Positions 6,295 to 52,997 of a stretch of 64,000 nt of DNA are shown here, piece by piece (positions within the stretch are counted from its first letter, which is position 1; every line of letters starts with the position of its first letter). The notes beneath the pieces are model-generated. The model had not been told where the DNA came from, made no database searches, and saw nothing but the letters and a program-made list of their open reading frames with translations. The translations under genes and the position numbers were made by a program. Origin of the DNA: an uncultured bacterium. Lineage in GTDB: Bacteria; Omnitrophota; Omnitrophia; Omnitrophales; Aquincolibacteriaceae. The DNA lies in assembly GCA_964420575.1 (NCBI GenBank), contig CAYQTU010000002.1, forward strand, positions 18,534 through 82,533, in the 5' to 3' direction.

Positions 6295-6295
6295 A

Positions 6296-19900: not shown

Positions 19901-22900
19901 GACGCGGGATTTCACTACCCAGGAAAAGAAACGCAATGACCTGCTTAAAACCGTGGAGGAATTAAGCGCGCGGATCCGGGGAGAGGAAGAAACCCTTGCC
20001 GCTCTTAGCGAAAAAACCACGCAGGCCGAACGTGATCTGGAAGTCAAGAGATCCCAAGGGGAGACTCTCGCCCGGGAACTCGCCAGCCAGGAGTCCCGGC
20101 TTAAAGCGCTCCAAGCGGACCAGGAACAAGCGAGAACCGAGCTGACTGAAATCCTTTCGAAACTCAAATCCGCGAAACGCAGAGCTTCGGATTTAGCGAG
20201 AAAAACGAAGCAACTCGAAGAAATTTCGCGAAAGACCGAAGAAAAAGACCGGAAACTTTCCGCGAAAAACGATGAGCTTTCAAAAGCCGATCAAGCTCTG
20301 ACCGAAAAACAAAGATCTCTTCAGGCCCTCGATGAGACGTTAGCGGCTCGTGGCAGGGAAATCGCGGCCTTGGAAGAAAAAGCGGCAGGTCTTCGAACCG
20401 AAACCGAGGCGCTCGAACGGAGAAAAGAAACGCTTTCGAAATCGACTGAGGAGCTTGGCACGATGCAGTCCGAGGTATCCGCTGCCGAAGCCGAGCTTTC
20501 AGGGATCCGAAAACAGTACGAGGACGCAAAAGCCGAGTATGAGCGTGTTCTCGCGCTTAGCCGGGAGGAGCGCGGTAACCTAGCAACCATTCAGGCCGAA
20601 CTTTCAAAAGCACAGGAAGCGGCGCAGGCGATGGAAACGAAATTATCCGATCTGAAGGAGCAGGAGCGGAAAAGAGAAGCGCTACTTCGTCAAATCGCCG
20701 AGGCTGAAAGAGAGCTTGAAGTAAAGGCCGCTTCCTTAAAAGAGATAAACGCGGAACTTTTAAAACTCGATTCGAAGAAAACGGAGCAAATTCAAGACTC
20801 GGAAAAAACGGACTCTGAAATCGCGGCAAAAGCCGCGGAGCTTACCCAAGTCAAGGCGGAGACGGCAAAGCTTCAGAGCGACCTCGAAACTTTAAGAGGA
20901 AACATCGCATCGCTTCTGGGTGACATCGAAGCTAAAAAGCGGGAGGCCGCCGCTTTAGAAGAGGAAAAAGTCCGGCTGCTTGGGGAAGCGAAATCCATTG
21001 AAGAGAAAAACCGGGAGATTGAGGAAGCCCGGAGAAAATTAGAGGCCGAGCAAGCCGAAAGAACCAAGGCCGAGCAGGCGCTTGCTGAGGAACAAAGAAA
21101 AGCAAGTGATACGGCTCAGGGTCTTAAGACAGTCGGGGAACGTTTGAAACAGACTGTTCGTGATATCGCGGACCGCGAGACAAAAATCGCGGGTCTTACG
21201 TCTGAGGTTGAGACTGAGAAAGCGAAGACAAGACAGGCCGAGGCCGGGAAATCCCAAGCCGAGGCCGAGCGCGAGCAGCTTGAAGCGGATCTCACGCATG
21301 CACAGCAGGAGAAAAATGTTTTAGAGGAAGCTTTACGACAGGCCCAGAAAACTTCAAAAGCGACCGGAACTACCGATTCCGTGCTGGAAGGGCGGGAGAG
21401 CCTCGAAGCCCTTCTTTCGGAACTTCCCGAAAGTTTATGGCAGCTTCTCGGGCGTCATTTTCCGGGGCAGCATCAAACTTCCTTTCAACTCACGGTAAGT
21501 TCTGTCGCGAATGAACTCGCTAACGCGTGGAGCCGGAGCCCATTTTTCAGACGCATCATAAAAAATCTCGTGCTTTACCGTTCTCTTTATGTCTGGCTTC
21601 AAAAACAACCGTTCTATCGAGAGTTTAAGAAGGAAGCGGAAAAACTCGGGGTAAAATCCGATTTCGATAAACCGGGGGAATGGATCCGTTTTAATATTCC
21701 GGGCGATTCCGAAGGCTATTCTCTCGAACTTTCCAAAAGGGACGCGGAATATCTTCTTCGCGGATTCATGTCCGGGGACTGCACGAACTGCGGTCCCGGT
21801 TATGTGACAGGCTCATTCCTGACCGCTACCGCAAGCCACATCGTCGATCCCGGTTTCTTTAACTTCAAGATCTTGAGGAACGGCGAGTGGGTCGGGAATG
21901 TCTACGTGATGGCGATCCGCGAGAAAAATAAACCAGTGCTCGTAATCGATGCGATGCAGATTCCGTGGCAGAGCGCTTCTCCTCTTTTCATTCCTTTTGA
22001 TTTATCGCAGAGCAAGTTCCCGATCGTAAGTGAGAAGGACGCGATCACGTTGGCGGACGCGGTGATTCGTGCGCTGTCCGAATACTCCTCAAAAGCCGGG
22101 TTCCAGGAGCTTTGGCTCTCGAGCTTCGTTTCCAATTTCAGCGCGCTCAAACATCATTTCTATGGCGCTAACCAAGATGAATTTGATAAGCGCGTAACCG
22201 GGGAAGCGAAGATCGGCGGCTGGAGTGCGTTAAAAGCGCTCGGGTACGAAGGTCATCCTTATGTGGAATCTATTGGGAACCCCGAAGCGAAGAAAGTCTG
22301 GGAAGCGGAGGAAGTGCCGCCTCCAACTCAAGTTGAACCGCCAAAAGTCACTCCATCCACTCCAGAACAGCCCGTTAAAGGAACCCAGAATATTAAAGGT
22401 CTTGTTCAGCAGATAAGAGAAAGCGTCATGTTCTCGTACGGGAACATTGTCCCTCGCGGCATGGAATTCGTCGTGAAAGCACCGGGAGCCGGAGTACGGT
22501 GGATCGCTTTTGATGAAACGGCCAATGAATGGAGACTTTACGAGAAAGCGAATGGCAGAACCGAGAGTTATCCCTTATTTGAGATAGGAAGCGGTGTTCG
22601 CCAGCAATCCGGAACTCTCAATCTTTCAGTCATTGCTGTGGAACGCGGCGGAAAGAGGATTCCTGTCATCAGATTCTTGATGCTTCCGCCCATTAAACCC
22701 GGAATTCTTGAAACGCACGTTGAAGAAGGCGGAGCTATTTTCGAGGAATCGGGTGAGATGAAAGTAATGCCTTTTACGAAGAAAGGCTTCATCGTGGACG
22801 ATTCCCGTGGCGCGTTCTTTGTCCATCCGGGCGGAGACCAAGGTCTTGATTCGAAGGAAAATATCTCATTGCCACTTTCGAATCATTATGACGTGAGCCG

Positions 22901-25900
22901 TTCAAGGTTCCCGACCGCGAAATTCATTCTTGGGTGGCACACGAACCCCGGAGGAGAGCCCGCGCTTCACTCCGAAGAAGAAAACGAGATAATCCGTTCC
23001 AATGTCGAAGGCTTCCAGCTTGTCGCGAGCCCAAAGGGTATTTCTCTTGTCAGGTATTACAAAGAGGGAGAAGCATGGAAGAAAAGAACCCTTTTCACGA
23101 AAACACTGAATGAGGATTGGGCGAGCGATCTTGAAGCGGCGTTACAGGCGGAACTGGACGACAACGTTAATTTCTCGGCATCCGGGTTCCAGTTAAAGCT
23201 GGAGGACCGGAAGCTTCTTGACGTGGCTCTTGAGGAAGGCTCCAAATCCGCGTCACGGAACATCAAACCCGAGATCGAAAGACTACGATTTGACCTGACC
23301 ACTTATTACGAACTTGTGCCGGAGTCGCTACTCTCGTTTATTCAAGATTCGGATTTTAAGCTTGTCGTGGTTCGTCCCAAAACCCCAAGGGGAGAAAGAG
23401 CGCCTCCCATGGGTCTTGGCGTGTATCTCGGAAAACCGGGGCGTGATGTGTTCGCATCATTCAACGTCGCTCCGAAGGAAGACGCGGATGGTTTCGATGT
23501 CACAATTTATGTTGGAAATGGTATTTACGAACTTGCCGGTGAAAAAGAACGCCTTGAAATCATCGCGCACGAGCTTTATCAAGCTTTTAAGGTTGTCAGC
23601 GCCCAAAATCCAAGGAAATATCAGGCTGACATCGATCTTGAGATCAAGATCGATCAGGAAATCCGAAACGCCGAAGCGTGGGAGGCCCGGATTCCGAATG
23701 AGGAACGAGCGGACCTCGGTTTGATCGGCGGCGTGGCGAATAGAACGAACGCGCATGTCCGGGCCCGCGCATTTGCCCGGTTGCTTGGTTCAAAAAGCTC
23801 GGACGGTGTCGGGACGACTTATACCGCGCTTCTCAGGAACGCATGGGCGCTTGCCCGTAGGTTCTCAGGGAACGTTTCTCAAGAGGATACTCTAAATCCC
23901 GTTCCGCCCGTTTCTCACGATGCGTTTCGTTATACCCAGGACAGTTATCAGAATGTGGTGAGCCCGGAAAGTCTCAAGACTCTTTTTGAGATGAGCGCCT
24001 ACGTTCATGAGAACAAAGAAGAAGACCTCCTTCAATTTTTAGATCGAAAGATCGAGGATGGGAAACGCGTTCTTCTTTTCAACACGAACGCTCCGACCCC
24101 TTGGATTTTGAAGGACCTCAGGAAGATCGTCGAAGGTCTTTCCGCGGAAGGGAAACTCGGGACGCTTTATATCGATTTGCCGCCCGAAAGCCAGCGCTTA
24201 ATCGATGAATTTTTGCGGACCGGGCAAAGCTCCGAGAAACTTTCGAAAATTCTCGCGACCCGTTTCCCGGTCTTTCTCCCGCGCGAGTTTCAAAGACCCG
24301 ATTTGTACGAAAATCTTCTGCGCGCGGTTTACGAATTCAATCTTGAGGCGCGTGATTCGCAGAAAATAAAGGTGGTTGCTTATTACCGGGGCCGGATGCT
24401 TCCGTCCATGCCGGGACCGGGACAGGTTCCAGGCCGGCCGGGCAATGTTCCGCAGCCACCCGCTGGGTTCCCATTTGGGAACGCCGGTGAAAACGAGTTT
24501 CCCGCCGTGATGCCGCGGATGAACGAGCTGCCGTTCGCTCAAGGGATGTCTCTTCCTCCGCTTCCGCTTACGCCGGGGGTGAGAGAAGCGTTTAGCAGCG
24601 CTCTCTCTGAAGCCGGGAGGAATCAAGGGATTGCAATATTCATAAAACCTTTGGATGAGTTTCTGCCGGAGGATCTTGTCAGGAATCCGGAAGTCGCTTC
24701 CATTCTTCAGATCGATAAATACACAGGATTCGGTCCTGAGAAACCCGAGAATAAACTCGCGCTTTATATGTCGGAGCAAGCCTCTCCGAACCAGAAATCC
24801 TTCGCACTTCCCATTGGTTCGGAAGCGCCGTTCTATGAGGAATCCATTAATCCCGGCCTTCCTGGAGGAATGCGTTTTAATGAGTTTAACGCGTACCCGG
24901 ACCTGATCCTGAGCACGGCGGGAGACGGAGAAGATACGTTTGAACCCACTCCCGACGAGCTTGTTCCCGACGAAATCGCGCCGCTTGTTCCGGTAGGGAG
25001 CCGTTCCGAACTCAGGTTGCAAACGACACCGGCCGCTATAAAAGCTCTTCATGAAAGAAAAGCGGCCATTCGTGAGCTTTCGCGGATCGGGGAGCCTGCT
25101 GTGGGTCCTTTGATCGAGGCTCTCAATTTCCCGAGCGTATCTGTGCAACTGGGCGCAATCCAAGCGCTTGGCGCGATTGGAAGCGCGCGGGCCGTGAACC
25201 CCATAAACCATGTTGCCCAGGCCGCCGCATTAAAAGACGCGGCTCGGCTCGCGGTCGAGGAGATAAAAAGCAAGACGCCCGTGCCATCGAAGCGGGAACC
25301 GAACCATCATCAGCCGGTTCCTCAAATCCCGTCCGGGCGTTCCATTTATTCTTCCTTTAACAGTACTCGTTCCGACGAATTTATCCGTGTTCTTTTGAAA
25401 GCCGCTCCGATTGCCCTTGATATCGATGCCGAGACATTGATCCGGAAAGAACACGGGCGACTTTCTCTTTCCGGCTGGGGATTCGTGGAAGCCATTAAGT
25501 CTCTTGAGCGGAAACTTCCGGACGAGCTTTTGGGGCGGATACAGATCCGTGTGATCAATCTGAATCCCGAACTTCGCGAGGAAGAGATTCGGCGCGCGTT
25601 TGGAATCACGCCGGAACTTCAGAGCCTGATCCGGATCGAGAATGTGCCCGTCCGCCACCGCGCGTTTAAAGGTCTTGGAAATTTCCTCGAGAAAACAGCG
25701 CTTAAGATCGGTTCTGAGAAAAACCAGGCGCTTTGGAAAGACAGTCTCGACATTCTGGTGGAGAACCCGCGGCCAAGCGAAGTAATCGACGGCAGAAAGC
25801 TGTTCCTTACGGCGCTGCTTCATAAAACGCTTCGTTCCAGGATTTCGGAGGCTCTGAAAGCCGTCGTCGTCCGGTTGCTTCACGAACTCGGGGAAAGCTC

Positions 25901-26006
25901 GTTCATGGCCCCGGTTCATTTCAGTTCCGAGAACCGGAGCGCGCTTGGCCTTGAGTTTGTCGCGGAGCTGGACCGGGTCAATAAGCTTCTGGCGACAATG
26001 GCATAG
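10989..26006 (+). CDS. giant 5005-aa secreted/membrane-anchored multidomain protein
   Basis: Single uninterrupted frame of 15,018 nt; GTG start. N-terminal signal-peptide-like MKTIGWLRFRFAFRLISLVLILSLISSDILWANP. Several internal TM helices; Pro-rich linkers; a triplicated ~170-aa module with G-x-S-x-DCT / DPxF / NGxWVGNxYV motifs; coiled-coil of ~680 aa; C-terminal HEAT/PBS-lyase-like repeats (PAVGPLIEALN...VQLGAIQALGAIGSARAV). Minus-strand ORFs inside are short. Confidence 0.8.
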   Translation: MKTIGWLRFRFAFRLISLVLILSLISSDILWANPVSMVPSAGQSVYSPGTGLEGFARLNESTRSDQKDKSPIIYHIQDAHAVFEAQQNLAKIVEALIQKEGIDLVLVEGGAGNVSLTSLRSLAWKKVRKRVGESFLRQGKITGEEFLELSSDYPFELYGIEDPALYRQNLDVFLSGISKKEKLSKELGRLDSAFSSLESSIYPSRFRDLEELRLAWRFGKGDFQVYLNTLRKLINESKVPAHDLLEWRKLGNSETVRSIDAEKFLKEINVLESRLRESLLNTQAKRLWRAQEHLRLLGRLFSFELTSDEYALLNGQQHFDLKKTGADIERLIQDSVHLRKSFAFLRSEFPEFLKFYDLARKRDKAFIKNINSILREKRERKVILITGGFHSKHLGALLKEEGISRILISPEITGASKNIDSDYAKILRAKSKSTLRAPATLGSPFYPELKITLGREQAKELGGHIKQLISLLNVDHLMAPAASKSVLLRSELRMELFNHLGTFFALSNNGTAVHWIVIGSAGILGIGILAFLLSKWKKKHKATHQNPVLLADSEYSSDTELSSDENNADEAFANFEATLGHAATPAQAFAFESGRFFGSSFPVASQDQHLPPPPQELPLPVPLNAIPADLDQKGKTVFVLREVLQAMETMDSTMRGHQKESAERAIRRVVSEGDGTLDHRRFRQYLEEDIHQFFGTIFREMQKLSTTHRETGNYQVSEEIEKAFPRFPRYVKSILSENPGLSEDVEVRGLMNRISAKLGARPPVAEDLGDYVERSFSRIMEERAQTRMPVLPVVETPKPAPKKTVDLGRIQGQLRDVQRMRERFEADQISLHVELTQLETEYRELQESMEDARQKNDTVIQEALGPSIDAYESRIQLLRHNDGEIKDRLRQIKGEEAKLSEELDEATGRSELREFLSFPIVFSSLGTGLLMLTALYLTKINRAIHRIRELTVKSGRSWPFTWKQVFDETVHLKKEEKLSIFDGTSEPPAQGFAGFGVFLGWVIGGWALYQAYHGWGWNTAKILRGEGDSAFTFGGLLWCLEIFAAPIVGAIVAPFLAFLGTIAINRGRMIARILKFPFDYEKVLELHLSDFHAYHQPFLKKAARFLSHMKSSTLETILRGWFDRGEDEKLKAVLEKNVWSGENYALIARFRDEFGLKEAKKALFTAAGEEFGGRLLQIIDTFKAGLIAKKVSGAGILKDVILEVLKTEKEKHMATYWMTQLMSDPATPWNAGFDKVKAYYAVRKRVDVLKTDAAKKFGLDKEDLAQVDAHIGKWRERILAPENKVTEPSWVWSLISELLGKIIARSSTKVWFMHILEKSHSLNAPFFAPARQRELLSRLDWLINYEIAKSDVWASASESEKSVLLSEMTSLEAFLKENGVDYSIALPDTFTKIKALSAPERIMVLRAFRGLNPSVYKKDPQAAGRAFQLLADKEILRGRLAANNGSAGSIRELEARLAVQTPEDIQTLKSCYGVLAEKADAKAQGVLLALAARAPPAVLPVFLKSSDHLVSYYAAHPKGRDYDNLPLLADEYRKRYGSLFSLNGILLNILTDPSKPQAVRIEEAGKTIAGQVLVRMGFPENTIGVWDSVSPEEIIHAVGYEVLRYSEEKKSDDEEKRSYFSPEEIRGEGERFLPARTRNPVVRKALEKMGRFGLYSHWESARPAYYLQFLEDTKGLDPEFFKPGEKVRASYDGEFVSPRRAGSLAPIKDPIQTMKGLIRNLRDRYPNIYDNFIGPKREILAGKPLEDFITDEKSLMSVAGQFRKKVADWPLSEDERVEMMILIYQVAFSSSLQPVLGKSSETEETRYWQDTLKAFQSASGLKKQSELYRNVTARIKKRIDELIEEAGAGREGVVQFVLTRGSVSDFFRGEISEDCTSELWNMHFTDTVGLPTDPAFLSFRLVENGRWIGNAYAIVLKDSSGKFIFYLDNIPVMLRHPATTVQVKSDKLIQNFFKQLKPVLENAGFDYFVIANDPSSRANLRTSIKALGGSAETKTVTKPGGFGGQSEFGVSSEYIQGLGTLSSSISAAGTWITLDNRSAQAQKSKAELTALEKQIQAMEEDRKRLAALKAEKTGRANHLKTVLQTISQGSKRATAQALNEAAQKEELEAERLSIETRTLEEQVKAVRGRLTGLRNEVAQRSELRMPALLAQSLFPDLSPGLLLFGLCALLFGGLIVILIIDWYSEQVKRDEEYTRSLERHSDDFRYTLRPINETPGWMKHPLVVEVGELFKTVLANVSAEIRELVPHRIFLPIMGWSMDLSKEVVNVLSTARIVLLALKEKGSLIPFLKEQPYYQKFKEEASALGLDPEFDKPGLVSEFELSRHNGTKISFALEVSERTADDLLRGDISRDCTGLGAHAAFYETIPQFLLDPGFIDLKLRMHGRWVGNVYVIAMKREGKPVLVIDAVQLHPSFVLWPIRPATIADEAVKQVTEWAKTKNFQAVYMSRFISNFFYLYDHFDPKYPPQKTEIEKLGGFKHLKALGLWDADTRRNQYIETFSPHWNEPLRVDANSAHQTLLLRPIWSAEAPARSEMRTDKVWDLDGFHFEVPESDLKGLRGVEAEKESKNQNLLLRALASKELGLSAALKEAVLDPATKIRVRIHDETKTERIYKFIIVRPDGRRNFILEINPRGGKFHPYTEELNLVDTALMTATDSTGEVDLRDIFTKFGEPPDPKLHVIPSFGTLYAQEIHKHGYVDQGMKIFDLTIKDHPTPSIRIATKAKNASEFSGAKVIYDFNWQKTPYVLAVYSPGAEVSLSEPSTPIPSETVVVEAPVKAEAPEDLSPVSVPEPPEPETPEPAAAVAQSAGTAGVLGAGAAFIKAILAKKRESLFKASIQKIERIGSDILGIARKAKEAVETAVEPSDLDRLEAELASSASAIDEGLAKLEAEVAKYKDGSKERTELDALKQKISGEIEALKEADIAREAAVQATDDHAKAEEISQALAEESRKLTALKSQTDKAREELERLEQKTRDFTTQEKKRNDLLKTVEELSARIRGEEETLAALSEKTTQAERDLEVKRSQGETLARELASQESRLKALQADQEQARTELTEILSKLKSAKRRASDLARKTKQLEEISRKTEEKDRKLSAKNDELSKADQALTEKQRSLQALDETLAARGREIAALEEKAAGLRTETEALERRKETLSKSTEELGTMQSEVSAAEAELSGIRKQYEDAKAEYERVLALSREERGNLATIQAELSKAQEAAQAMETKLSDLKEQERKREALLRQIAEAERELEVKAASLKEINAELLKLDSKKTEQIQDSEKTDSEIAAKAAELTQVKAETAKLQSDLETLRGNIASLLGDIEAKKREAAALEEEKVRLLGEAKSIEEKNREIEEARRKLEAEQAERTKAEQALAEEQRKASDTAQGLKTVGERLKQTVRDIADRETKIAGLTSEVETEKAKTRQAEAGKSQAEAEREQLEADLTHAQQEKNVLEEALRQAQKTSKATGTTDSVLEGRESLEALLSELPESLWQLLGRHFPGQHQTSFQLTVSSVANELANAWSRSPFFRRIIKNLVLYRSLYVWLQKQPFYREFKKEAEKLGVKSDFDKPGEWIRFNIPGDSEGYSLELSKRDAEYLLRGFMSGDCTNCGPGYVTGSFLTATASHIVDPGFFNFKILRNGEWVGNVYVMAIREKNKPVLVIDAMQIPWQSASPLFIPFDLSQSKFPIVSEKDAITLADAVIRALSEYSSKAGFQELWLSSFVSNFSALKHHFYGANQDEFDKRVTGEAKIGGWSALKALGYEGHPYVESIGNPEAKKVWEAEEVPPPTQVEPPKVTPSTPEQPVKGTQNIKGLVQQIRESVMFSYGNIVPRGMEFVVKAPGAGVRWIAFDETANEWRLYEKANGRTESYPLFEIGSGVRQQSGTLNLSVIAVERGGKRIPVIRFLMLPPIKPGILETHVEEGGAIFEESGEMKVMPFTKKGFIVDDSRGAFFVHPGGDQGLDSKENISLPLSNHYDVSRSRFPTAKFILGWHTNPGGEPALHSEEENEIIRSNVEGFQLVASPKGISLVRYYKEGEAWKKRTLFTKTLNEDWASDLEAALQAELDDNVNFSASGFQLKLEDRKLLDVALEEGSKSASRNIKPEIERLRFDLTTYYELVPESLLSFIQDSDFKLVVVRPKTPRGERAPPMGLGVYLGKPGRDVFASFNVAPKEDADGFDVTIYVGNGIYELAGEKERLEIIAHELYQAFKVVSAQNPRKYQADIDLEIKIDQEIRNAEAWEARIPNEERADLGLIGGVANRTNAHVRARAFARLLGSKSSDGVGTTYTALLRNAWALARRFSGNVSQEDTLNPVPPVSHDAFRYTQDSYQNVVSPESLKTLFEMSAYVHENKEEDLLQFLDRKIEDGKRVLLFNTNAPTPWILKDLRKIVEGLSAEGKLGTLYIDLPPESQRLIDEFLRTGQSSEKLSKILATRFPVFLPREFQRPDLYENLLRAVYEFNLEARDSQKIKVVAYYRGRMLPSMPGPGQVPGRPGNVPQPPAGFPFGNAGENEFPAVMPRMNELPFAQGMSLPPLPLTPGVREAFSSALSEAGRNQGIAIFIKPLDEFLPEDLVRNPEVASILQIDKYTGFGPEKPENKLALYMSEQASPNQKSFALPIGSEAPFYEESINPGLPGGMRFNEFNAYPDLILSTAGDGEDTFEPTPDELVPDEIAPLVPVGSRSELRLQTTPAAIKALHERKAAIRELSRIGEPAVGPLIEALNFPSVSVQLGAIQALGAIGSARAVNPINHVAQAAALKDAARLAVEEIKSKTPVPSKREPNHHQPVPQIPSGRSIYSSFNSTRSDEFIRVLLKAAPIALDIDAETLIRKEHGRLSLSGWGFVEAIKSLERKLPDELLGRIQIRVINLNPELREEEIRRAFGITPELQSLIRIENVPVRHRAFKGLGNFLEKTALKIGSEKNQALWKDSLDILVENPRPSEVIDGRKLFLTALLHKTLRSRISEALKAVVVRLLHELGESSFMAPVHFSSENRSALGLEFVAELDRVNKLLATMA

Positions 26007-28389: not shown

Positions 28390-29475
28390 ATGAGCGAAGA
28401 ATCGAGATTTCAAAGCCCGAAAAAAAGACCATCGATGAAAGACGTGGCCCGCGAGGCTGGCGTTTCAACGATGAGCGTAACCCGCTTCCTGAACACCCGG
28501 AAGCGAATGGAACTAAGTCCCGAAACGCGGGCGAGGATTGAGCTTGCAATCCAGAAACTCGCGTATGCGCCGAGTCCTTTCGCGAGGAAGCGAAACGCCC
28601 GGGAAAAATACACCTTCGGGTTATTAACCTCTCTGTCCAAAGAGATCATGAAATCCGGCTATCACATGGGAATCCTGGGCGGGATCGTGGATCGGGTATT
28701 TCAGACGGGGCATGCGATCAAGTTCTTTCATTACGCGAATCGTCCTTATGAAAGGCTGGAAGAAATCCTTTATGAGCAGGGGGTGGACGGTCTTCTTATC
28801 ATCACCTGGAGAATGGAACCCTCGCTTGTGCGGCTCGTTGGGAAAAGCCCGGTCGATCTGCCTCTTATTATTTTCAATGATTATACTGAAGAACTTAAAA
28901 CCAATATTCTTTATACAGACGTTCGGACCGGCATGAAAACCGCCGTTTCATATCTCGTGAGCAAAGGGTATTCGAAAATCGGTCTGATCAAAGCTCCGTC
29001 TGAACTTCTTTTCCAAAACGGAGGTGAATCCGAGATGCTTCCCTCCATGGATATTCAGGAAAAACACAAAGGGTTTCTTGCCGCTTTAAAGGAATACTCT
29101 CTTTTAAAGAAACAGTCCTGGATCCGGGAATGTCCGACTTATAAAGAATCGGACGCTTATACCGTGATGAAAAAATGGATTCAGACGGGAAATCTTCCCG
29201 AGGCCATTATTTGCACGAATGACGAGATGGCCTTAGGCGCGCTAAAGGCCTTAAAAGAGGCGAAACTCTGGTGCCCTGAGAAGATCGCTCTCATGGGTTT
29301 TGACGATATTGACCGGGGCCGATGCATTTCTCCGTCGCTTACGACGATGCGTCAGCCGCTTCATCAGATGGGCTCTGACGCTGTGGATTCATTGATTGAC
29401 CGGATCCAGTTCCCGGAGCATAAACCAATCCAGAAGCGATACGACGCGGAACTGGTTCCCAGGCAAACGGCATAG
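28390..29475 (+). CDS. LacI-family transcriptional regulator
   Basis: N-terminal HTH MKDVAREAGVSTMSVTRFLN plus periplasmic-binding-protein-like sugar-binding core; 361 aa. Confidence 0.9.
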   Translation: MSEESRFQSPKKRPSMKDVAREAGVSTMSVTRFLNTRKRMELSPETRARIELAIQKLAYAPSPFARKRNAREKYTFGLLTSLSKEIMKSGYHMGILGGIVDRVFQTGHAIKFFHYANRPYERLEEILYEQGVDGLLIITWRMEPSLVRLVGKSPVDLPLIIFNDYTEELKTNILYTDVRTGMKTAVSYLVSKGYSKIGLIKAPSELLFQNGGESEMLPSMDIQEKHKGFLAALKEYSLLKKQSWIRECPTYKESDAYTVMKKWIQTGNLPEAIICTNDEMALGALKALKEAKLWCPEKIALMGFDDIDRGRCISPSLTTMRQPLHQMGSDAVDSLIDRIQFPEHKPIQKRYDAELVPRQTA

Positions 29476-29600
29476 CAGTTTTTTCAAAGTGTCTTGTTCT
29501 ATAAAATTTTAACAGGAGTTATTGGCGTCAAGCCGGAAGGTGTCACCGTAAGTGAATTGCGTTGCGGGACTACCTGGAGATTCCGAGGAGGTATCCGTGA

Positions 29601-30002
29601 ATGACCGCGGATGCAAGGATAGAAAACTCAATACGAAAACAAGAGCTGAAAGGCGGTTTTGGATTGGAGCGTTGCGCGAACCCGAACTGCTCGCAGGTGC
29701 TTTATGAGAAATCCCAGGCTTACTGGAAGCACGCTCCCCGCAGGATGGTTTGCGGTGAATGCGAAAGGGACGTCATATTCCAGGGCACGGCATTCGCATC
29801 GAGCAACATGGGCGAGATTATTTATGTGTATTGGTGTGATTTCTGCAAAAGCGAATATCACGTGCGTATCCCTCTCGTGAAAAAATTCTGTTCCGTTTGC
29901 AAAATCGAATGGTACAAAAGCCGTAGTTTTCATTTGAGGGCCCCGCTTCCTCCTCACGATCCATCGTCCATCTCCTGCGCTCCTGCCACGATCATCGGTT
30001 GA
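29601..30002 (+). CDS. hypothetical double zinc-ribbon protein
   Basis: Four CxxC pairs (CANPNC, CGEC, CDFC, CSVC). Confidence 0.45.
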   Translation: MTADARIENSIRKQELKGGFGLERCANPNCSQVLYEKSQAYWKHAPRRMVCGECERDVIFQGTAFASSNMGEIIYVYWCDFCKSEYHVRIPLVKKFCSVCKIEWYKSRSFHLRAPLPPHDPSSISCAPATIIG

Positions 30003-30062
30003 TGGCTTAGTCGCGCTCGGTCAACCCCTTAATCCGCTAACCGTTAATTTTTTCCAAGCCAT

Positions 30063-30215
30063 CCGGCTTCCGCACCCGGGCATGCCGCCTTTTGGCCGCC
30101 TCTACACGCTTTTTCAGGTGTACGAACCGTTCGACTACGCTCCCTCGTCATATTTATTTTGCCTCGGGACCGTAGTCGAACGCTTCTAAGCCGGCATGCC
30201 GGGTGCGAATTCAAA
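30063..30215. repeat. long imperfect inverted repeat, candidate element boundary / recombination site
   Basis: TTCCGCACCCGGGCATGCCG...GAACCGTTCGACTACG (30063-30145) mirrored by CGTAGTCGAACG...CGGCATGCCGGGTGCGAA (30170-30212), asymmetric spacing; lies exactly where the + strand-only conjugation gene block begins. Confidence 0.5.
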
Positions 30216-30263
30216 GAAAAACTCCTTTTCCAACCTCTATTTTTAAAAAACAGAAAAAATATT

Positions 30264-30321
30264 TCTCAAAACCTACGAAAACCTATTCCGAACCCCCCTG
30301 TTTTGGCCCAATACTATGAGA
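30264..30321 (+). promoter_or_regulatory. conserved ~60-bp promoter-like element, copy 1 of 3
   Basis: TCTCAAAACCTACGAAAACCTATTCCGAA-N8-GTTTTGGCCCAATACTATGAG; near-identical copies at 47305-47365 and 52998-53063, all ~80-100 bp upstream of + strand genes. Confidence 0.6.
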
Positions 30322-30406
30322 GAACCTATAAATCAAAACGACCAGTCTTAAACCTGGTGCTACTTTTTTGGCCTTAAAGCCATAGACATAGAAAAGGAGA
30401 ACGACA

Positions 30407-30850
30407 ATGAAACGAGAACTGGACATCAGACGACGTGACTGTGCAATTTCCGTGAACTCGCAAAAGACCGTTTCCGGAAGTTTTTTGGCAAGATTGGGAA
30501 GGTTATTCGGTGCTGGCGTAAGTCTTGGTTTTGTGCTTTTTGTGGCCATAACCTCTTGCGCTTTGATGAACCGTGGTTCCAATTTTGCGTGGGCATCCTG
30601 GCAGGAGATGTGGAAAGAAGAAACACCGAAGCAGTCCCGGGAGATTGCGCTTCCGGTGCTGCCGAGCACCCGGAAAGCCCAACCCTATCGTCCGCAGGTT
30701 GTTGTGGCGCAGCAGCCATCCGTTATGGCTGCGGCGACCGTGAGACCTGTGGAGGATTACCGAATCGCGCAAGAGCGGCGCTTGCTTTTGAGCGATCTCT
30801 GGAGCCGTTTGAATCAGACGTTATCAACGGCCCGAAGTTTTTCGCGGTAA
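30407..30850 (+). CDS. hypothetical membrane protein
   Basis: RBS AAAGGAG 7 nt upstream of ATG; one TM helix (GAGVSLGFVLFVAITSCAL). Confidence 0.5.
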   Translation: MKRELDIRRRDCAISVNSQKTVSGSFLARLGRLFGAGVSLGFVLFVAITSCALMNRGSNFAWASWQEMWKEETPKQSREIALPVLPSTRKAQPYRPQVVVAQQPSVMAAATVRPVEDYRIAQERRLLLSDLWSRLNQTLSTARSFSR

Positions 30851-30946
30851 TCTTGATCGCAGGGTAAAAGGGGGAAGAGAGCAAATCTTCCCCCTTGCGG
30901 CGGTAAGCTTCTCCTTGGCGGGCCATTTCACAAGGAGGAGCTTCTA

Positions 30947-31711
30947 ATGAATCAACCGCCCGATAGCGAAAGTACCGCAATCGACGATTCTGACGATGAG
31001 TCAAAGATTATCACCCCGATTGAGTTAACGGATCGAGACATCGCGATTTTTAAATTGATCCACGAACACCGGTATTTGGCCTACGGCCAGATCCGGGAAG
31101 CGTTCTGGAAAGAGCGTTCGGAGTCGGCTAAAGCCTGTTACCGGCGGATCGAGCGGCTCATTAATTCAGGGTATCTTTCGAAAGGTTATTCCGGCCGAAA
31201 GAATCTGAACATCTATTTCGCGACCGAAAAATCCCTGGAGATCCTGAAAACTCGAAATCTCGATTCCGATATCCGACTTTATGAGCCCACCCCGTATTTC
31301 GATCGCTCCATCGACCATGATTTGAAAGTCGCAAGCGTAAGGATTTTCTTCCGGGAGTTTGGCCTGAGTGACTGGACCCCCGAAAGGGTGTTAAGGGAAC
31401 GCGATCATTTCTTTCGCGTCCCGGACGGTGTTTTGAATATTCGCGGGAAAAAGCTCGCAATCGAGTTCGAAAATCATCTGACGAAGAGCATGAAACGCTA
31501 TCAGGAAGTTTTTGATTATTACAGCGATCACAAGATCTATCTCCTGCTTCTCATGATTATCGACGGGGATACCAAGGACTGGCTCGTTCACGGAATGCGC
31601 TATAACGCCCAGAAGATCTGGATCACAACGTATCAGGAGCTGCTGAATGACAGGGAAGACACGCTTTTTGAAAATAAACGGGCCAGTTTCAAGCTGAGCC
31701 GGCTCTTTTAG
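30947..31711 (+). CDS. replication-relaxation (Replic_Relax) family protein
   Basis: 254 aa; N-terminal wHTH-like LTDRDIAIFKLIHEHRYLAYGQIREAFW...RRIERLINSGYL and C-terminal core HDLKVASVRIFF...VPDGVLNIRGKKLAIEFENH typical of this mobile-element family; RBS AAGGAGG. Confidence 0.55.
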   Translation: MNQPPDSESTAIDDSDDESKIITPIELTDRDIAIFKLIHEHRYLAYGQIREAFWKERSESAKACYRRIERLINSGYLSKGYSGRKNLNIYFATEKSLEILKTRNLDSDIRLYEPTPYFDRSIDHDLKVASVRIFFREFGLSDWTPERVLRERDHFFRVPDGVLNIRGKKLAIEFENHLTKSMKRYQEVFDYYSDHKIYLLLLMIIDGDTKDWLVHGMRYNAQKIWITTYQELLNDREDTLFENKRASFKLSRLF

Positions 31712-31719
31712 GGGGCGCG

Positions 31720-33540
31720 ATGCAAAAACCTCCTGTTAAAAGAGAACCGTTCCTCGTCCGTATGATCGGCGGGATTTTTGTGGGGATCCCTTTCGGGATT
31801 TCGAAGAGCATTCTGAATCTTTTGACGAGCCTTAAGCGTCCATCGCTTCAAAGACTGATCCCTGGGATACTTGTCTCGTTTTCGCTGTTTTGTGTTTTAA
31901 GGCTCGGCGCTCTTTTCGATCTGCTCGACCTTCTCTTTCAAAGCAGGCGGGTCGATCCCGGCTGGGCTGCGGGCGTGAAATTCGGGTTCTTTTTCCTGCT
32001 TTATCTCGTCATCACTCTCCCCGTTTTCCTGTGCTTTGCTTATTTGAATCAGGAAGCACGATTTTTCAAACAGGATCCAGTCAAACGAGACCCGTCTCCG
32101 GAACGGATGCGGTCTTTCCGCATGAAATCCGATTATCACAAGGTTTATCTGGGGTACGGCCTGAACCAGGAGAAACCTCTTTATCTCACCAACGACCAGC
32201 GCCTGATGCACTGCGAGGTGGTGGGAAGCACCGGCACCGGAAAAACGGAGTCCGTGCTTCTTCCGATGCTCGCCCATGACATCTCGCATGGGAAAGGCGC
32301 GATCATCATTGACGGAAAAGGGGACCTGGAACTCAGGGACAAGATCCGTTACATCGTCCATAAACAGAAGCGCGAGGATGACTTTTACTTCTTCTCGTTA
32401 AGCCATCCCCAAAAATCGAATACTTATAACCCGCTTTACCGCGGGAACCCCACGGAACTGAAAGACAAGCTCGTCAACAGCATGTCCTGGAGCGAGGAGT
32501 TTTACCGGCGCATGGCGGAACAAGCTGCGCTCACGCTTCTTAACGCCATCGCTTCCGCAGGCCGGAAACCCCGGTTTCGCGAGCTTCACGGCTATTTAAC
32601 GGACCTGCAAGCCTTACAAAAACTCTCGGATGAAACCAGGAGCCCGGTCCTGAAGGAAGACATTGGAAAAATGGTCACGGGTTTCAAGGACAATCACAAG
32701 TTTCTGGCCGGGTTAATATCCGATCTTTTCCTCACCTCAAGGAGCGAGTTCTCGGACCTTCTGGATACGGATGATCCCGATATCGATCTGCTTTCGCTTT
32801 ACGAGAATAACCAAATCTGCTATTTCGCGCTCGATCTTCAGAAATACGCGGATACTTCGCGGCGTCTCGGCCGGATGATCATCCAGGATATCCGTGCCGC
32901 TTCGAGCCATATCGTGTCCCATCTTACGGCTTACCGCCGTCATTTCTTCCCGGTGTTTATCGATGACGCCTCGAGTTTTTTGGAGCTTAATTTCATCGAT
33001 TTCCTGAATAAATGCCGGGCGAGCGGATATGCCGTTACGATTCTCCATCAATCCCTGGGGGACCTTGTTTACCGGGGGATGTCCAATTTCCAACAGCAGG
33101 TGGTCGAGAACACCAATATCAAGGTCATTTTGCGCCAGGATGATCCCTTTTCCGTGGAGAAGTTCGTGAAAATCGCCGGGACGCGCCGCACCATGATCGC
33201 GACTTACCAGACGCAGGAACAAATCCTTGGAAAAGGACTGACCGGCGCGGGCTCCGTTCGCGAAGGCCAGACTTTCCGCATCGAGCCGGACCTGATCCGG
33301 GGCCTTAAACGCGGCGAGGCCGCCTTGATCTGGAAAAACCCGTCTTTGTTGACCGATCATATTAAACTCGATTTCTTCGGGTACTCGAGTTATCCGGAAG
33401 AACCGTCCTCAAAAGACAACGGGGAGAAGATTCCAAAGAAAAAACGTGCAATAAAAACTCTCACCGAAGAAAAGGAGAAAACTCATGAGGAGATCAAAAA
33501 TCCGCTTGATATCATCAATCAATTAGAAAAAGAGAAATGA
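31720..33540 (+). CDS. type IV secretion coupling protein (VirD4/TraD/TraG-like ATPase)
   Basis: N-terminal TM helices, Walker A VVGSTGTGKTES, Walker B-like region FFPVFIDDASSFL, 606 aa. Confidence 0.8.
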   Translation: MQKPPVKREPFLVRMIGGIFVGIPFGISKSILNLLTSLKRPSLQRLIPGILVSFSLFCVLRLGALFDLLDLLFQSRRVDPGWAAGVKFGFFFLLYLVITLPVFLCFAYLNQEARFFKQDPVKRDPSPERMRSFRMKSDYHKVYLGYGLNQEKPLYLTNDQRLMHCEVVGSTGTGKTESVLLPMLAHDISHGKGAIIIDGKGDLELRDKIRYIVHKQKREDDFYFFSLSHPQKSNTYNPLYRGNPTELKDKLVNSMSWSEEFYRRMAEQAALTLLNAIASAGRKPRFRELHGYLTDLQALQKLSDETRSPVLKEDIGKMVTGFKDNHKFLAGLISDLFLTSRSEFSDLLDTDDPDIDLLSLYENNQICYFALDLQKYADTSRRLGRMIIQDIRAASSHIVSHLTAYRRHFFPVFIDDASSFLELNFIDFLNKCRASGYAVTILHQSLGDLVYRGMSNFQQQVVENTNIKVILRQDDPFSVEKFVKIAGTRRTMIATYQTQEQILGKGLTGAGSVREGQTFRIEPDLIRGLKRGEAALIWKNPSLLTDHIKLDFFGYSSYPEEPSSKDNGEKIPKKKRAIKTLTEEKEKTHEEIKNPLDIINQLEKEK

Positions 33541-34312: not shown

Positions 34313-34495
34313 CAAGGAGGAGGTGATTTTTGTGCGGCTCATCATTCGCAAGCAGGATGAACTAAAACACGCCCATCTGATCCAGCGTTTCAAGCGCTTC
34401 GGCTGGGAAGTGATCGTGAAATGAATATCGGAACATGGGCGGGAAGTAACGCGTTCATTCCCGCCCATGTCTTCTACCGGGAAAGGAGTAGTCGT

Positions 34496-34726
34496 ATGAC
34501 GCGTTGTATTCGTTGCAAGAAAAGAATCAAAAGGAACGGTTATCAAATTTCTATCGTAAGACGGACAAGATCCGCGAACATTTTTAAGCCCGTATTTTTT
34601 TGGCACAGGGTTCTTGTCTCATTTTTGTGCTGGGCTTGCGTTCAAAATCCGGTCCGAATTGACAGGTTATTCAACCCAAAAGAAAAAAAGCAGGCTCTGA
34701 AACTTGCCCGGCTACGGGACTGGTAA
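34496..34726 (+). CDS. hypothetical small basic Cys-containing protein
   Basis: ATG 34496 preceded by GAAAGGAG; the ORF-track start (34421) would run through a perfect 11-bp hairpin (34433-34470), so the downstream start is preferred. Confidence 0.4.
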   Translation: MTRCIRCKKRIKRNGYQISIVRRTRSANIFKPVFFWHRVLVSFLCWACVQNPVRIDRLFNPKEKKQALKLARLRDW

Positions 34727-36486: not shown

Positions 36487-37593
36487 ATGAAGAAACTTTA
36501 TACAGAGTACAAAGGCATTTACGTGCTTCAGGATCCGGGGGATCTCGCGGCCCTGAAACTTGATTCGTGCGTTGTTTCAAGGAAAAGACACCAGATTTAT
36601 ATCGCTCCGCTTGAGAATCTTCAAACAAAGCAGGTGGAGGACAAGCGTAGTTCCGGGTATTCCGACCCTGTTTTCGGATTTTACGCCGCGAAACCCGAAA
36701 GATTCCTCGTGATTAATGGCGAGCGCAAGAACTCGAAATTCTGCGATCTTTGCAAGGACCGGTTGCACGGGATCACCGGCAACTGTTTTAACTATGGGGC
36801 GAAACCAGGCGGCTGTTCTTTCCGTCCGGCAAAGGCTCCGGGGAAATTCAATATCTCGCTTGCCGGATGGAAGTATTTAAAGCCCTCGCGCGTCAATCAA
36901 TACTCACCCTTTAAGAAACCTTGGAGCGCGGAATACATCCATCTCGATTCGAAAATAATTAACCGGAACAAACGCGCCCTCGCCGCGCGCAATGATTTTT
37001 GGGGCCAGCTTGAGAAGAAGAAGGCGAAATATTGCGCCCGCTGCATCTTCAAAGGCCGCTGTTACATGAACAGCATGCGGATCGCAGAGCGCTGCATGGT
37101 CACGGTCGAGAAAACCGAGAAACGCTCTTTAGGGAAAATTCATTCGAGATTCGGAAGTGTTGAGGAGTTTTTGAACCGGCTTGCTTATTGCGGGAAGGAG
37201 ATCGTCTGCCGTCCGAAGGGCGAGAAGCGGAAAACGAGGTGGGTGGTCACGAAACCCGTAGGCCGTAACAAATTCCTCATTCGAAAAAGAAGCCGGCCTT
37301 TCAAAAGAGCGATCGTTTCAAAGACGAGAATCGAAAGAAACGTGGTTCCGGAAGCGTTGCCGTCGCTTGAGCGTGAGAAGATAGCGACTTTTGCCTGGTA
37401 CTTTTTCGAAAAGTACTGCGCGAAAGATCAGGACGCGTACCGGGGATACCGGGGCCGCACGATTCGTATTCTTTCGGTCACTCCGGTTCCTAGCGGCATC
37501 GAGGTGAGCTATTACCCTTACGGCTGGGGCACTCCAAGCATCTCTCGAAAACAATTCCATTCATTTAATGAGATTGTGAGTTTCGAGCGTTGA
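36487..37593 (+). CDS. Cys-rich hypothetical protein, paralog A of tandem pair
   Basis: 368 aa; RBS AAAGGAGAAC; conserved with 37622..38680 over whole length (KFCDLCKDRLHGITGNCFN / CSFRPA / KYCARCIFKGRCYMNSMRIAERCMVT). Confidence 0.7.
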   Translation: MKKLYTEYKGIYVLQDPGDLAALKLDSCVVSRKRHQIYIAPLENLQTKQVEDKRSSGYSDPVFGFYAAKPERFLVINGERKNSKFCDLCKDRLHGITGNCFNYGAKPGGCSFRPAKAPGKFNISLAGWKYLKPSRVNQYSPFKKPWSAEYIHLDSKIINRNKRALAARNDFWGQLEKKKAKYCARCIFKGRCYMNSMRIAERCMVTVEKTEKRSLGKIHSRFGSVEEFLNRLAYCGKEIVCRPKGEKRKTRWVVTKPVGRNKFLIRKRSRPFKRAIVSKTRIERNVVPEALPSLEREKIATFAWYFFEKYCAKDQDAYRGYRGRTIRILSVTPVPSGIEVSYYPYGWGTPSISRKQFHSFNEIVSFER

Positions 37594-37621: not shown

Positions 37622-38680
37622 ATGGAAAAAGTTTATACGGAGATCGATGGGACTTATGTTTTTCCGAAGCCCCGCGACCTTAGATCCCTCAAGCCTGATT
37701 CGTGCGCGGTACGGATCATGAAGGATAAACCCTGCGTGATTCCATTGAAAAATCTTCAGGGGAAGGAGGTCGAGAATGGGAACCGGCACGGCTATTCTTG
37801 CGTGTGGGGATATCACGACGATAAGAGCGATCCTTACATCGTCATGAACGGCGAGAAAAAGAAACCGAAGTTCTGCGATTTCTGTAAGGACCGTTTGAGC
37901 GGGATTACCGGCAATTGCCTGAACCGGGCCGTTAAACCCTCAGGATGTTCGTTCCAGCCGGCGGATGATTTGAAGCCTTTTGAGATCAATTTGACGGGCT
38001 GGAAGAAACTCCGTGCGATCGATCTCAACGAACGGACTCCTTTTTTAAAACCGTACATGGGCGGTGTTTCTTTTGATCCGAAACTCATCAAACAAAACCG
38101 AAAAATCCGGATGATCGCGAGGCACCTCCCGGAATATCAGGAACGGAAGCTCGAGAAATACTGTTCCCGCTGTATTTTTCAGGGAACTTGTTATCTCTAT
38201 AGCACTAAAGTGGCCGAGCACTGCATGGTCACCGAGGAAAAGACCATAAAAGGGTGTTTGGTGCAGATTCGGCGGCGGTTTGGGAACGTCGATGAATACC
38301 TCGGAATGCTTGCTTACTGCGGCGGCAAATTGACGTACAAACCCGAGGGGCAACCCCAAGAATCGGAATGGCGGGTCTCGCAGCCTTTCAGCAAGAAACA
38401 GTATGAGATCGTCGGGTCTTATTCCGGGTATAGCGGTTCGAAAGCACCAAGAAAACTCGTCGAGGATTCCGTAACGCCCGTTCGTGTTCCGACACGGAAT
38501 CGTGAAAAGATCGCGGCCCTCGCCTGGTATTACCTGGATCACTATCCTTTTCACCGGCTCTGGATTTCGCTTAAACAGGGGGGTATTGAAGCGACGCATC
38601 AAGTGCACGGCCACAACCGTTTCTTCCGCGCTGAGGTTTTTACGTCCTTCAACGAGATCCATTACTTCTTCTGTCGTTAG
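37622..38680 (+). CDS. Cys-rich hypothetical protein, paralog B of tandem pair
   Basis: 352 aa; RBS AAAGGAGAACC; KFCDFCKDRLSGITGNCLN / CSFQPA / KYCSRCIFQGTCYLYSTKVAEHCMVT. Confidence 0.7.
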   Translation: MEKVYTEIDGTYVFPKPRDLRSLKPDSCAVRIMKDKPCVIPLKNLQGKEVENGNRHGYSCVWGYHDDKSDPYIVMNGEKKKPKFCDFCKDRLSGITGNCLNRAVKPSGCSFQPADDLKPFEINLTGWKKLRAIDLNERTPFLKPYMGGVSFDPKLIKQNRKIRMIARHLPEYQERKLEKYCSRCIFQGTCYLYSTKVAEHCMVTEEKTIKGCLVQIRRRFGNVDEYLGMLAYCGGKLTYKPEGQPQESEWRVSQPFSKKQYEIVGSYSGYSGSKAPRKLVEDSVTPVRVPTRNREKIAALAWYYLDHYPFHRLWISLKQGGIEATHQVHGHNRFFRAEVFTSFNEIHYFFCR

Positions 38681-46623: not shown

Positions 46624-46658
46624 ACGGGCAGCCCCTTTCCGGGTTGCCCGTTTTTTTT
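46624..46658 (+). terminator. rho-independent terminator
   Basis: ACGGGCAGCC-loop-GGTTGCCCGT 10-bp stem then TTTTTTTT. Confidence 0.7.
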
Positions 46659-46697
46659 CCTCATTCCAGTTCTTCGCACGGCGGAAAGGACACCGCC

Positions 46698-47306
46698 GTG
46701 TCTACAAAGAACGAAAACGAAGAACAGAATCAAAACCTTGCCGAGGAGGCTGGGGAAGAAAGAGAAGAACGAACCAAATCAAGAACAAGGGCGGTTGATT
46801 TCATGCGTGTGGAAGATACGCAAGGCCAAACTCTCACTCACTTTGAACTGAAAGTGAAAGAAAAGATCGCCTGTGTCCCGAGTCCTTTTGAAGAACTCGC
46901 CAGGAAGGAGGATGAGGAAAACCGGTCCGAAGAGGTTCGAAACACACTGAGGGACTTAGTGGAGAAGGCTTTGACCGAGAAACAGAAAGCCTGGTTCCAT
47001 CTTGCGTACGTGGAAGAACTCCCGGACTTTGAGATCGCGAAACGCCTCGGCGTTACGAAACGCCGGGTTTCGTCTCTTAGAGCCGAGGCCTTAAACGCCT
47101 TCAAGCGCGTTTATGAGAAAGAACGGCTCAAGCAATATCTGGACACCTGCGCTCTCACGGAAAAACAGAGGCTTGTGATCGAACTCCGCTTTGAGAAGCG
47201 GCTCTCCTATAAAGAGATCGCGGAACGGTTGGGAGTGACGGTTTGGGCCGTGGATGACGTTTTAAAACGGATCCGGAAAAATTTTTTCTCTCGGGAAAAT
47301 TCGTGA
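46698..47306 (+). CDS. transcriptional regulator with two tandem sigma-70 region-4-like HTH domains
   Basis: LTEKQKAWFHLAYVEELPDFEIAKRLGVTKRRVSSLRAEALNAFKRV and LTEKQRLVIELRFEKRLSYKEIAERLGVTVWAVDDVLKRIRKNF; no region-2 detected. Start taken as GTG 46698 (alternative ATG 46803) because the ORF-track start 46644 lies inside the upstream terminator. Confidence 0.6.
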   Translation: MSTKNENEEQNQNLAEEAGEEREERTKSRTRAVDFMRVEDTQGQTLTHFELKVKEKIACVPSPFEELARKEDEENRSEEVRNTLRDLVEKALTEKQKAWFHLAYVEELPDFEIAKRLGVTKRRVSSLRAEALNAFKRVYEKERLKQYLDTCALTEKQRLVIELRFEKRLSYKEIAERLGVTVWAVDDVLKRIRKNFFSRENS

Positions 47307-47365
47307 AACCTACGAAGACCTATTCCGAACAGGGTCGTTTTGGCCCAATACTATGAGGGGAGATG
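47305..47365 (+). promoter_or_regulatory. conserved ~60-bp promoter-like element, copy 2 of 3
   Basis: GAAACCTACGAAGACCTATTCCGAACAGGGTCGTTTTGGCCCAATACTATGAGGGGAGATG; begins immediately after the stop of the region-4 regulator gene and ~95 bp upstream of the pilin gene. Confidence 0.6.
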
Positions 47366-52980: not shown

Positions 52981-52997
52981 AAATCTTCGTTTTTTTT

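Follow-up and report, generated by a model that had tools for sequence, protein, structure and literature searches.

A probable origin of conjugative transfer: the nested inverted repeat near a MOB_C-type relaxase gene of an uncultured Omnitrophota bacterium

The DNA analysed here, called the window throughout, is a 64-kb stretch of contig CAYQTU010000002.1 from the genome assembly GCA_964420575.1 of an uncultured Omnitrophota bacterium; its subject is a 137-bp inverted repeat of nested design at positions 30071-30207, which lies 740 nt upstream of the start of a relaxase gene. The relaxase (30947-31711, + strand, 254 amino acids) matches the Pfam family PF13814 (Replic_Relax, MOB_C superfamily) with 31.1 bits against a gathering threshold of 25.3 (E 3.2e-7). 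It is preceded in the mob operon by a first open reading frame (ORF) of 147 amino acids (30407-30850, + strand) that has no Pfam match and whose translation contains a hydrophobic stretch, which suggests a membrane protein; a gene of 129-136 amino acids is called at the equivalent position in other loci. The relaxase gene is followed on the same strand by a gene for a VirD4/TraG-type coupling protein (31720-33540; TrwB_AAD_bind, TraG-D_C and T4SS-DNA_transf matches) and, further to the right, by accessory genes encoding a MoxR ATPase, a VWA/DUF2201 protein, a DUF932 protein and a sigma-70 protein with region 4 only, and by genes of a type IV secretion system (T4SS), namely VirB4/TraC, VirB6, VirB9 and VirB10, at about 48-55 kb, the last of which ends at 55147.

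The repeat was first described in an earlier note on this DNA as two segments that recur in reverse complement downstream with unequal spacers; all four quoted segments were found within 30071-30207, and the two spacers measure 36 and 5 nt. The outer stem, P1, is formed by a 5' arm at 30071-30087 (CGCACCCGGGCATGCCG, recognised in the sequence and by the repeat-finding tool) and a 3' arm at 30192-30207 (CGGCATGCCGGGTGCG), which is one base shorter because it is without one C, leaving a 1-nt bulge; the outer arm is composed of the small palindromes CCCGGG and GCATGC. The inner stem, P3, has its 5' arm at 30124-30144, including GAACCGTTCGACTACG at 30124-30139, and its 3' arm at 30166-30186, including CGTAGTCGAAC at 30171-30181, the two arms being 21 nt long and 90% complementary according to the repeat tool and separated by an AT-rich apical loop of 21 nt (30145-30165). 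On the left side the stems are separated by the long spacer (30088-30123), which holds a weak small hairpin, P2 (30103-30122, TACAC/GTGTA, from folding), and terminates in a conserved TAC abutting the inner stem, and on the right side by the short spacer (30187-30191). Of the eight inverted repeats of comparable size in the window, the inner pair takes first place, and no other is nested. Folded as RNA, the repeat reaches z-scores of -6.4 on the + strand and -8.5 on the - strand, and folded as DNA, of -5.4 and -9.1, respectively, with no shuffled sequence equally stable in either case. The strength of the repeat is far above chance.

For comparison, 23 genome loci with relaxase homologues (45-85% identity) were retrieved. 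In the majority, BLAST located the repeat ahead of the relaxase gene, and a covariance model of the repeat, built on 16 copies, recovered 19 complete copies and two that are truncated by the end of the contig, the contigs of the remaining two loci stopping short of the repeat site. All six further loci that extend far enough upstream carry the repeat as well. Every locus with enough upstream sequence (27 of 27) thus has exactly one copy, oriented parallel to the gene and situated 700-900 nt upstream of the relaxase start. With the covariance model, neither the window nor any other locus yielded a second copy, the only additional hits being weaker reverse-strand matches on the inner hairpin at the same place. 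Most of the named relaxase homologues, together with their contigs, belong to Candidatus Omnitrophota; two contigs with repeat loci bear other labels, Alphaproteobacteria (L006) and Desulfobacterales (L149). Several assembled genomes hold two copies of the relaxase locus on separate contigs. A metagenome scan with the 16-nt outer arm as query listed 80 loci, of which only four were real elements, one of them new, and the others were chance matches to a GC-rich 16-mer.

The sequence variation among these copies follows the proposed pairing. Across 23 distinct sequences, Watson-Crick or wobble pairing is retained in 94.7% of cells, and compensatory, two-sided changes are present at 23 of the 34 pairs; when the partner was slid by 1-3 columns, pairing dropped to 32-41%, and none of 500 shuffles matched any of the observed measures. 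The sequence of P1 is near-invariant between loci, yet compensatory changes occur at 10 of its 15 pairs. The substitutions swap one Watson-Crick pair directly for another, and G-T pairs are almost absent: once a doubtful terminal pair is excluded, about 700 cells include only 3 on the + strand and 11 on the - strand, the latter appearing as C-A or A-C when the + strand is read. The TAC preceding P3 is invariant in the 16-sequence alignment. P2 had been considered as a conserved third helix, an idea that was dropped when folding of the individual sequences showed it to depend on lineage: a hairpin of P2 type is found in most loci, with at least six distinct stem sequences, but five of the 23 sequences form it weakly or not at all, and in the window it is marginal. 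For this reason, the element is described here as a nested hairpin with an asymmetric junction, and no universal three-way junction is claimed. Altogether, the repeat is a conserved structured DNA element under selection.

Strong folding on both strands, clear covariation and an intergenic position between co-oriented genes are also what might be expected of a structured RNA, for example a 3' untranslated region element of the upstream gene (a putative zinc-ribbon gene discussed below), an RNA regulating the mob operon, or an antisense RNA that works by means of its fold. The near-absence of G-U pairs and the direct exchange of Watson-Crick pairs are unusual for RNA, however, and the stem sequences themselves are highly conserved. 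Rfam 15 gave no match even up to E 10, apart from a meaningless one to mir-651 (22.7 bits against a gathering threshold of 106), no promoter-like site was found in 29400-31000, and the same design and core are known from DNA origins of transfer, so that we regard an RNA as very improbable. The location between the upstream gene and the mob promoter, and the small palindromes that make up the outer arm, could likewise fit a double-stranded operator, terminator or insulator, either a palindrome bound by a regulator of the mob operon or a terminator for the gene upstream. There is no T tract after the repeat on either strand, however, and no terminator-like site overlaps it; the 137-bp size and the compensatory changes in both stems indicate pairing of the arms rather than a fixed binding sequence, and the design is again one shared with known origins of transfer. 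Such a function therefore has only a slim chance of being the right one.

The gene to which the repeat is linked encodes an enzyme with the hallmarks of the MOB_C class. PF13814 corresponds to MobC of CONJscan (PMC5357655) and falls in the PD-(D/E)XK nuclease superfamily (PMC3424549). The window relaxase has the PD-(D/E)XK domain with acidic metal-binding residues (DEE motif), a Tyr equivalent to Y181 of TraX from the Enterococcus faecalis pheromone plasmid pAD1 (a MOB_C relaxase), a residue reported to be essential, and an N-terminal winged-helix DNA-binding domain; its predicted fold consists of a MarR-like winged helix followed by a restriction-endonuclease-like domain. In an hhalign comparison with the relaxase of plasmid pAM373, the segment IEFEN..K....RY aligned with FEIEL..K....RY, covering the position of TraX Y181, and the invariant D/E/K residues aligned as well. 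A DNA search of 30000-31800 against 72,556 plasmids gave no match, and a search of the plasmids with the relaxase protein gave two weak Bacillus matches alone.

Relaxases of the HUH type (plasmids F, R388 and RP4) act at origins of transfer (oriTs) that lie beside the relaxase operon and contain an inverted repeat near the nick, which forms a hairpin on the transferred strand; the nick falls in single-stranded sequence a few bases 3' of this short hairpin. The MOB_C plasmids that we compared share a different architecture, a nested repeat of 110-140 bp, which is common to pAM373, CloDF13 and a Bacillus thuringiensis plasmid. In CloDF13 the nick, and in the window the predicted nick, lie inside the stem of this far larger nested repeat, and the enzyme is not of the HUH type. 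Francia and Clewell reportedly described in 2002 a large repeat of ~140 bp common to the E. faecalis pheromone plasmids pAD1 (the oriT of which is named oriT2) and pAM373, with the nick within it and with direct repeats conferring specificity. In pAM373, which is typed MOBC and carries a "replication-relaxation family" gene, we find a nested repeat of 142 bp with 18-bp outer arms (14392-14409 / 14516-14533) and 25-bp inner arms (14422-14446 / 14474-14498), located in the interval that separates the coupling-protein gene from the PF13814 relaxase gene, ~600 nt before the latter. It is adjoined by five direct repeats with a 12-nt period, and the window too has short direct repeats beside its repeat; TraX binds five direct repeats 70-120 bp from the nick (reviewed in PMC12857230). 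The inner arm of pAM373 contains ATGGTCA 10 nt from the loop, and beyond this core there is no arm sequence in common with the window. The pAM373 repeat also differs in its perfect arms and near-equal spacers (17 and 12 nt, against 36 and 5 nt in the window), in the placement of its direct repeats, which lie across the repeat as seen from the relaxase gene, in the gene order (coupling protein, oriT, relaxase), and in belonging to a Gram-positive host with another type of T4SS.

CloDF13, with MobB and MobC, is the MOB_C prototype in enterobacteria. Its nested repeat (9650-9783, 134 bp) lies upstream of the mob operon and has 14-bp outer arms, 19-bp inner arms and unequal spacers of 16 and 5 nt; it differs in a 47-nt loop with sub-hairpins and in belonging to a small mobilisable plasmid without a T4SS of its own. 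The published nick of CloDF13, 5'-GGGTG/GTCGGG-3' (Nunez and de la Cruz 2001, quoted in PMC5935869), could be located at 9755-9765 on the + strand, in the inner arm, and contains GTGGTCG, which is identical to the Omnitrophota consensus. The third plasmid, the uncharacterised pP05_2-m of B. thuringiensis (NZ_CP083098), gave the best tblastn match to the window relaxase among the 72,556 plasmid records (24% identity), and its genes are ordered as in the window, with the repeat followed by a relaxase-like gene resembling PF13814 and a coupling-protein gene. Its nested repeat spans 112 bp; the outer arms measure 21 bp and the inner arms 19 bp, and of the two spacers (20 and 1 nt) the long one is on the same side as in the window; as in the window, TACGAACC precedes the inner arm and GACCAC lies inside it. 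The differences are its perfect arms, its shorter span, a distance of only ~200 nt from the gene and its classification in PLSDB as non-mobilisable.

A common core, T(G/A)GTC(G/A), is found 9-11 nt from the loop within the inner arm in all four lineages: GTGGTCG in CloDF13, GTGGTCA in B. thuringiensis, ATGGTCA in pAM373 and GT(A/G)GTCG in 21 of 23 sequences of the Omnitrophota family. By a rough, post hoc calculation made by hand, which allows for four hexamer variants, three positions and three further lineages, the chance of such sharing is about 3e-8. In the 16-sequence alignment GT.GTCG of the 3' inner arm is invariant, as is GAC.A of the 5' inner arm, the latter also in a 17-sequence alignment. 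In the window the heptamer reads GTAGTCG at 30172-30178 on the + strand and at 30138-30132 on the - strand (CGACTAC at 30132-30138 on the + strand), its presence on both strands being due to the symmetry of the arms. By analogy with the CloDF13 nick, candidate nicks would thus fall between 30136 and 30135 on the - strand and between 30174 and 30175 on the + strand.

As to which strand would be nicked and transferred, the balance of several observations is towards the - strand. All 23 of 23 loci show it as the more stably folding strand, and in CloDF13 it is the transferred strand that is the more stable folder (-53.7 against -43.6 kcal/mol); it is the template strand of the mob genes, as is the transferred strand of CloDF13; and mismatches of the G-T type favour it by 10 cells to 3 (one-sided p ~0.05, calculated by hand). 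Two features speak for the + strand instead. If the - strand were transferred, the long spacer would lie on the opposite side of the inner hairpin relative to CloDF13, and TACGA before the inner stem fits the arrangement of CloDF13 and B. thuringiensis on the + strand. Because of these two features the call is a weak one, and we lean towards the - strand, with the nick between 30136 and 30135, as the probable substrate. The better folding of the - strand, and the fact that the repeat adjoins co-oriented cargo genes templated by this strand, would also suit a single-strand replication origin of the ssi or sso type, or an Frpo-type promoter active in the recipient, possibly alongside an oriT. 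A scan of 29400-31000 for sigma-70-type promoters gave no site on either strand, however, the invariant core is the mapped nick sequence of CloDF13, and the repeat is always paired with a relaxase gene; we therefore give such a single-strand signal a small probability.

Together, the linkage to the relaxase gene, the structure and its covariation, and the design and nick core shared with known MOB_C oriTs make it likely, in our judgement, that the repeat is the MOB_C-type oriT of a conjugative element in this uncultured Omnitrophota bacterium; nicking itself, the nick position and the strand are inferred from sequence and by analogy. As a possible course of events, the 137-bp repeat would form a long hairpin, either by extrusion from double-stranded DNA or when the DNA has become single-stranded, in which an asymmetric internal junction joins the outer stem of 15 bp to the inner one of ~20 bp. 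The relaxase, a PD-(D/E)XK enzyme of restriction-endonuclease-like fold, would dock by its winged helix on nearby DNA, possibly on direct repeats 60-120 nt away, and would nick one strand within the heptamer GT(A/G)GTCG of the inner stem. From there the nicked strand would be passed by the VirD4-type coupling protein, encoded next to the relaxase, to the T4SS encoded at about 48-55 kb, and the hairpin of the transferred strand would serve in recognition and, within the recipient, in termination and rejoining. With nicking of the - strand, the recipient would receive the genes of the left side first and those for mob and T4SS functions last. On this account the repeat is an ordinary functional part of a conjugation module and not a new kind of element.

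A number of points weigh against the assignment as an oriT. Kinship of the relaxase to characterised MOB_C enzymes is remote: the hhalign comparison with the pAM373 relaxase reached E 3.5e-4 with a probability of 37%, and BLASTP found no similarity between the two proteins, so that the relationship is one at the level of the superfamily. The mechanism of MOB_C enzymes is itself poorly understood, no covalent intermediate having been reported (PMC12857230). The status of a discrete mobile element is not established, since neither its ends nor an integrase was found, the latter being sought among the scanned ORFs of the window. Finally, the direct repeats that would be the docking site belong to a motif that also stands at two other operon starts, and may therefore be a promoter or operator rather than an oriT-specific binding site of the relaxase.

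This motif, which is promoter-like and which the earlier note had placed about 50 bp after the repeat, does start 54 nt past it. The 59-nt sequence (AAACCTACGAAAACCTATTCCGAA...GTTTTGGCCCAATACTATGAG) occupies 30262-30320 and recurs at 47299-47357 and 52995-53053, each copy preceding an operon of the element. The whole promoter-like region (30262-30329, + strand) contains three direct repeats, A(A/G)AACCTA(C/T), at 30268-30276, 30278-30286 and 30321-30329, that is, 61-122 nt past the repeat; in other lineages, short direct repeats of another sequence (AAATGTTC type) occupy the equivalent place. The region is a candidate for a binding site of the relaxase or of a regulator and for the promoter of the mob genes. 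The second copy of the motif begins at the stop codon of a gene for a 220-amino-acid protein (46644-47306), the sigma-factor Pfam match of which covers region 4 alone; the motif and this region 4 protein may form an element-specific transcription system. Two small hairpins lie in the mob leader, at 30341-30358 and ~30371-30382 (ACCAGTCTTAAACCTGGT, GGCCTTAAAGCC), just before the ribosome-binding site of the first gene, and both are conserved in sequence in most related loci. Beyond the coupling-protein gene the loci vary: in L147 and L149-L151 it is followed by genes for PC4-like single-stranded-DNA-binding proteins, with a RadC gene next in L149-L151, and in L152 and L153 a group II intron reverse transcriptase replaces the PC4-like genes downstream of it. 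In the same region of the window, the second-ranking inverted repeat is a 38-bp near-perfect palindrome without spacer (34433-34470, ACATGGGCGGGAAGTAACG / CGTTCATTCCCGCCCATGT) at the start of the ORF at 34421-34726. A 29-nt stretch is common to the genes at 36487-37593, 37622-38680 and 44474-45544, the third of which matches DUF932, and from this shared sequence the three may be paralogues within the element.

The left flank of the repeat is also conserved. A gene for a 133-amino-acid protein with four invariant Cys pairs (29601-30002, + strand) adjoins the repeat in 18 of the 20 compared loci; in 17 of these it is the immediate upstream neighbour, and in L003 it lies 4.6 kb away on that side. 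Its cysteine pattern indicates that the protein probably consists of two zinc ribbons, and it may be an accessory DNA-binding protein. It has no Pfam match, and its structure model is poor (predicted local distance difference test, pLDDT, 59.7) and gave no significant fold match, with a weak likeness to the zinc ribbons of NrdR and TFIIS; matches to zinc-finger profiles were discarded because cysteine spacing alone explains them, and a 178-amino-acid ORF upstream of the repeat in L001 was rejected as a diverged homologue. Further to the left are a gene for a LacI-type regulator (28390-29475), which is kept upstream of the repeat in seven loci, a gene for a glycoamylase-like protein and an ORF of 5005 amino acids. 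The earlier note had set the repeat at a switch from mixed host genes to element genes on the + strand only. The non-nested ORFs of at least 120 amino acids between 8586 and 30002 are all already on the + strand, and the switch is not there. The repeat can be called the left edge of the conjugative block as far as the block of mob and T4SS genes is concerned, and it is not an edge of the element, conserved genes lying on both sides.

A variable cargo slot abuts the left foot of the repeat and measures 90 nt in the window (29978-30067). In the nearest relative (85% identical relaxase), it is filled by a 5.9-kb restriction-modification (R-M) cassette, and in L003 by a different R-M system made up of an Eco57I/TaqI-like methylase and an XhoI endonuclease. 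Homology to the window accordingly begins at the left foot of the repeat in both cases, at 30068 and 30070, respectively, which on its own might mark an attachment site or the physical end of an integrated element, with the arms of the repeat as recombinase-binding sites at an attL. The break at 30068 is, however, the right junction of the cassette inserted there, and beyond the cassette the nearest relative is again syntenic with the window, showing the zinc-ribbon gene, the LacI gene, the glycoamylase gene and a giant gene in turn. What the left foot borders is thus a variable cargo slot, and the element does not end there. No second or partial copy of the repeat is present in the window, the zinc-ribbon gene flanks it in 18 of 20 loci, and no integrase was found among the scanned ORFs; tRNA genes are absent from the window and from 13 related loci, hence no tRNA-linked integration site. 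We give an attachment site hardly any credence, and of the three functions proposed in the earlier note (attachment site, oriT or element end) it is the oriT that the relaxase linkage and the shared design and core bear out.

How far the region associated with this probable oriT extends to the left is suggested by other similarities. The only large - strand gene of the window (7085-8479) encodes a protein 23% identical (E 1e-24) to a 439-amino-acid HTH_3 and cupin protein that in L011, L016 and L018 is encoded 3-4 kb ahead of the repeat; from these matches, the shared backbone may reach more than 20 kb to the left of the repeat. The G+C content is 0.34-0.48 (mostly below 0.45) in 1-9000 and 0.39-0.41 in 62000-64000, and 0.43-0.55 (mostly 0.47-0.55) between, a shift that may mark an acquired segment much larger than the T4SS block. 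The 5005-amino-acid ORF lies at 10989-26006. About 1.2 kb upstream of it is a c-di-GMP-I-GGC riboswitch (9734-9824; 68.5 bits against a gathering threshold of 59), and an ORF of 132 amino acids (10109-10507) lies between the two. Giant genes recur a few kb to the left of the block formed by the zinc-ribbon gene, the repeat and the relaxase gene: together with that of the window they encode 5005, 8308, 5012 and 5092 amino acids, in addition to a fragment, the other loci being L154 (1-6213), L151 (1-850) and L020 (25-2976), and the relaxases of the giant-gene loci are ~46-85% identical to that of the window. The giant gene may belong to the conjugative element as cargo and not to the host.

No oriT of the MOB_C class is known to us from Omnitrophota, although no literature search aimed at this was made. 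Few oriTs have been defined for relaxases of this restriction-endonuclease-like class, the enzymatic mechanism of which is still unclear, and the present comparison shows one design, a nested repeat with a nick core in the inner stem, that is common to elements of Pseudomonadota, Bacillota and Omnitrophota. It yields a concrete prediction of the nick site and a pattern by which such origins could be spotted in metagenomes. The cargo slot and the recurrent giant genes are more unusual observations than the repeat itself, and the repeat provides a fixed reference point for asking whether R-M cassettes and giant genes travel with the element. From a broader point of view, it is conceivable, if rather doubtful at present, that the repeat starts the leading region of a family of Omnitrophota conjugative elements, in which the side transferred first would carry co-oriented cargo such as interchangeable R-M cassettes in the slot adjoining the repeat and, at a greater distance, giant genes of 5,000-8,300 codons, one of them behind a c-di-GMP riboswitch. 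If this is true, the nested repeat with its TGGTC core would be a cross-phylum signature of MOB_C origins that could be used for prediction, and the giant proteins typical of these nanobacteria would spread by conjugation.
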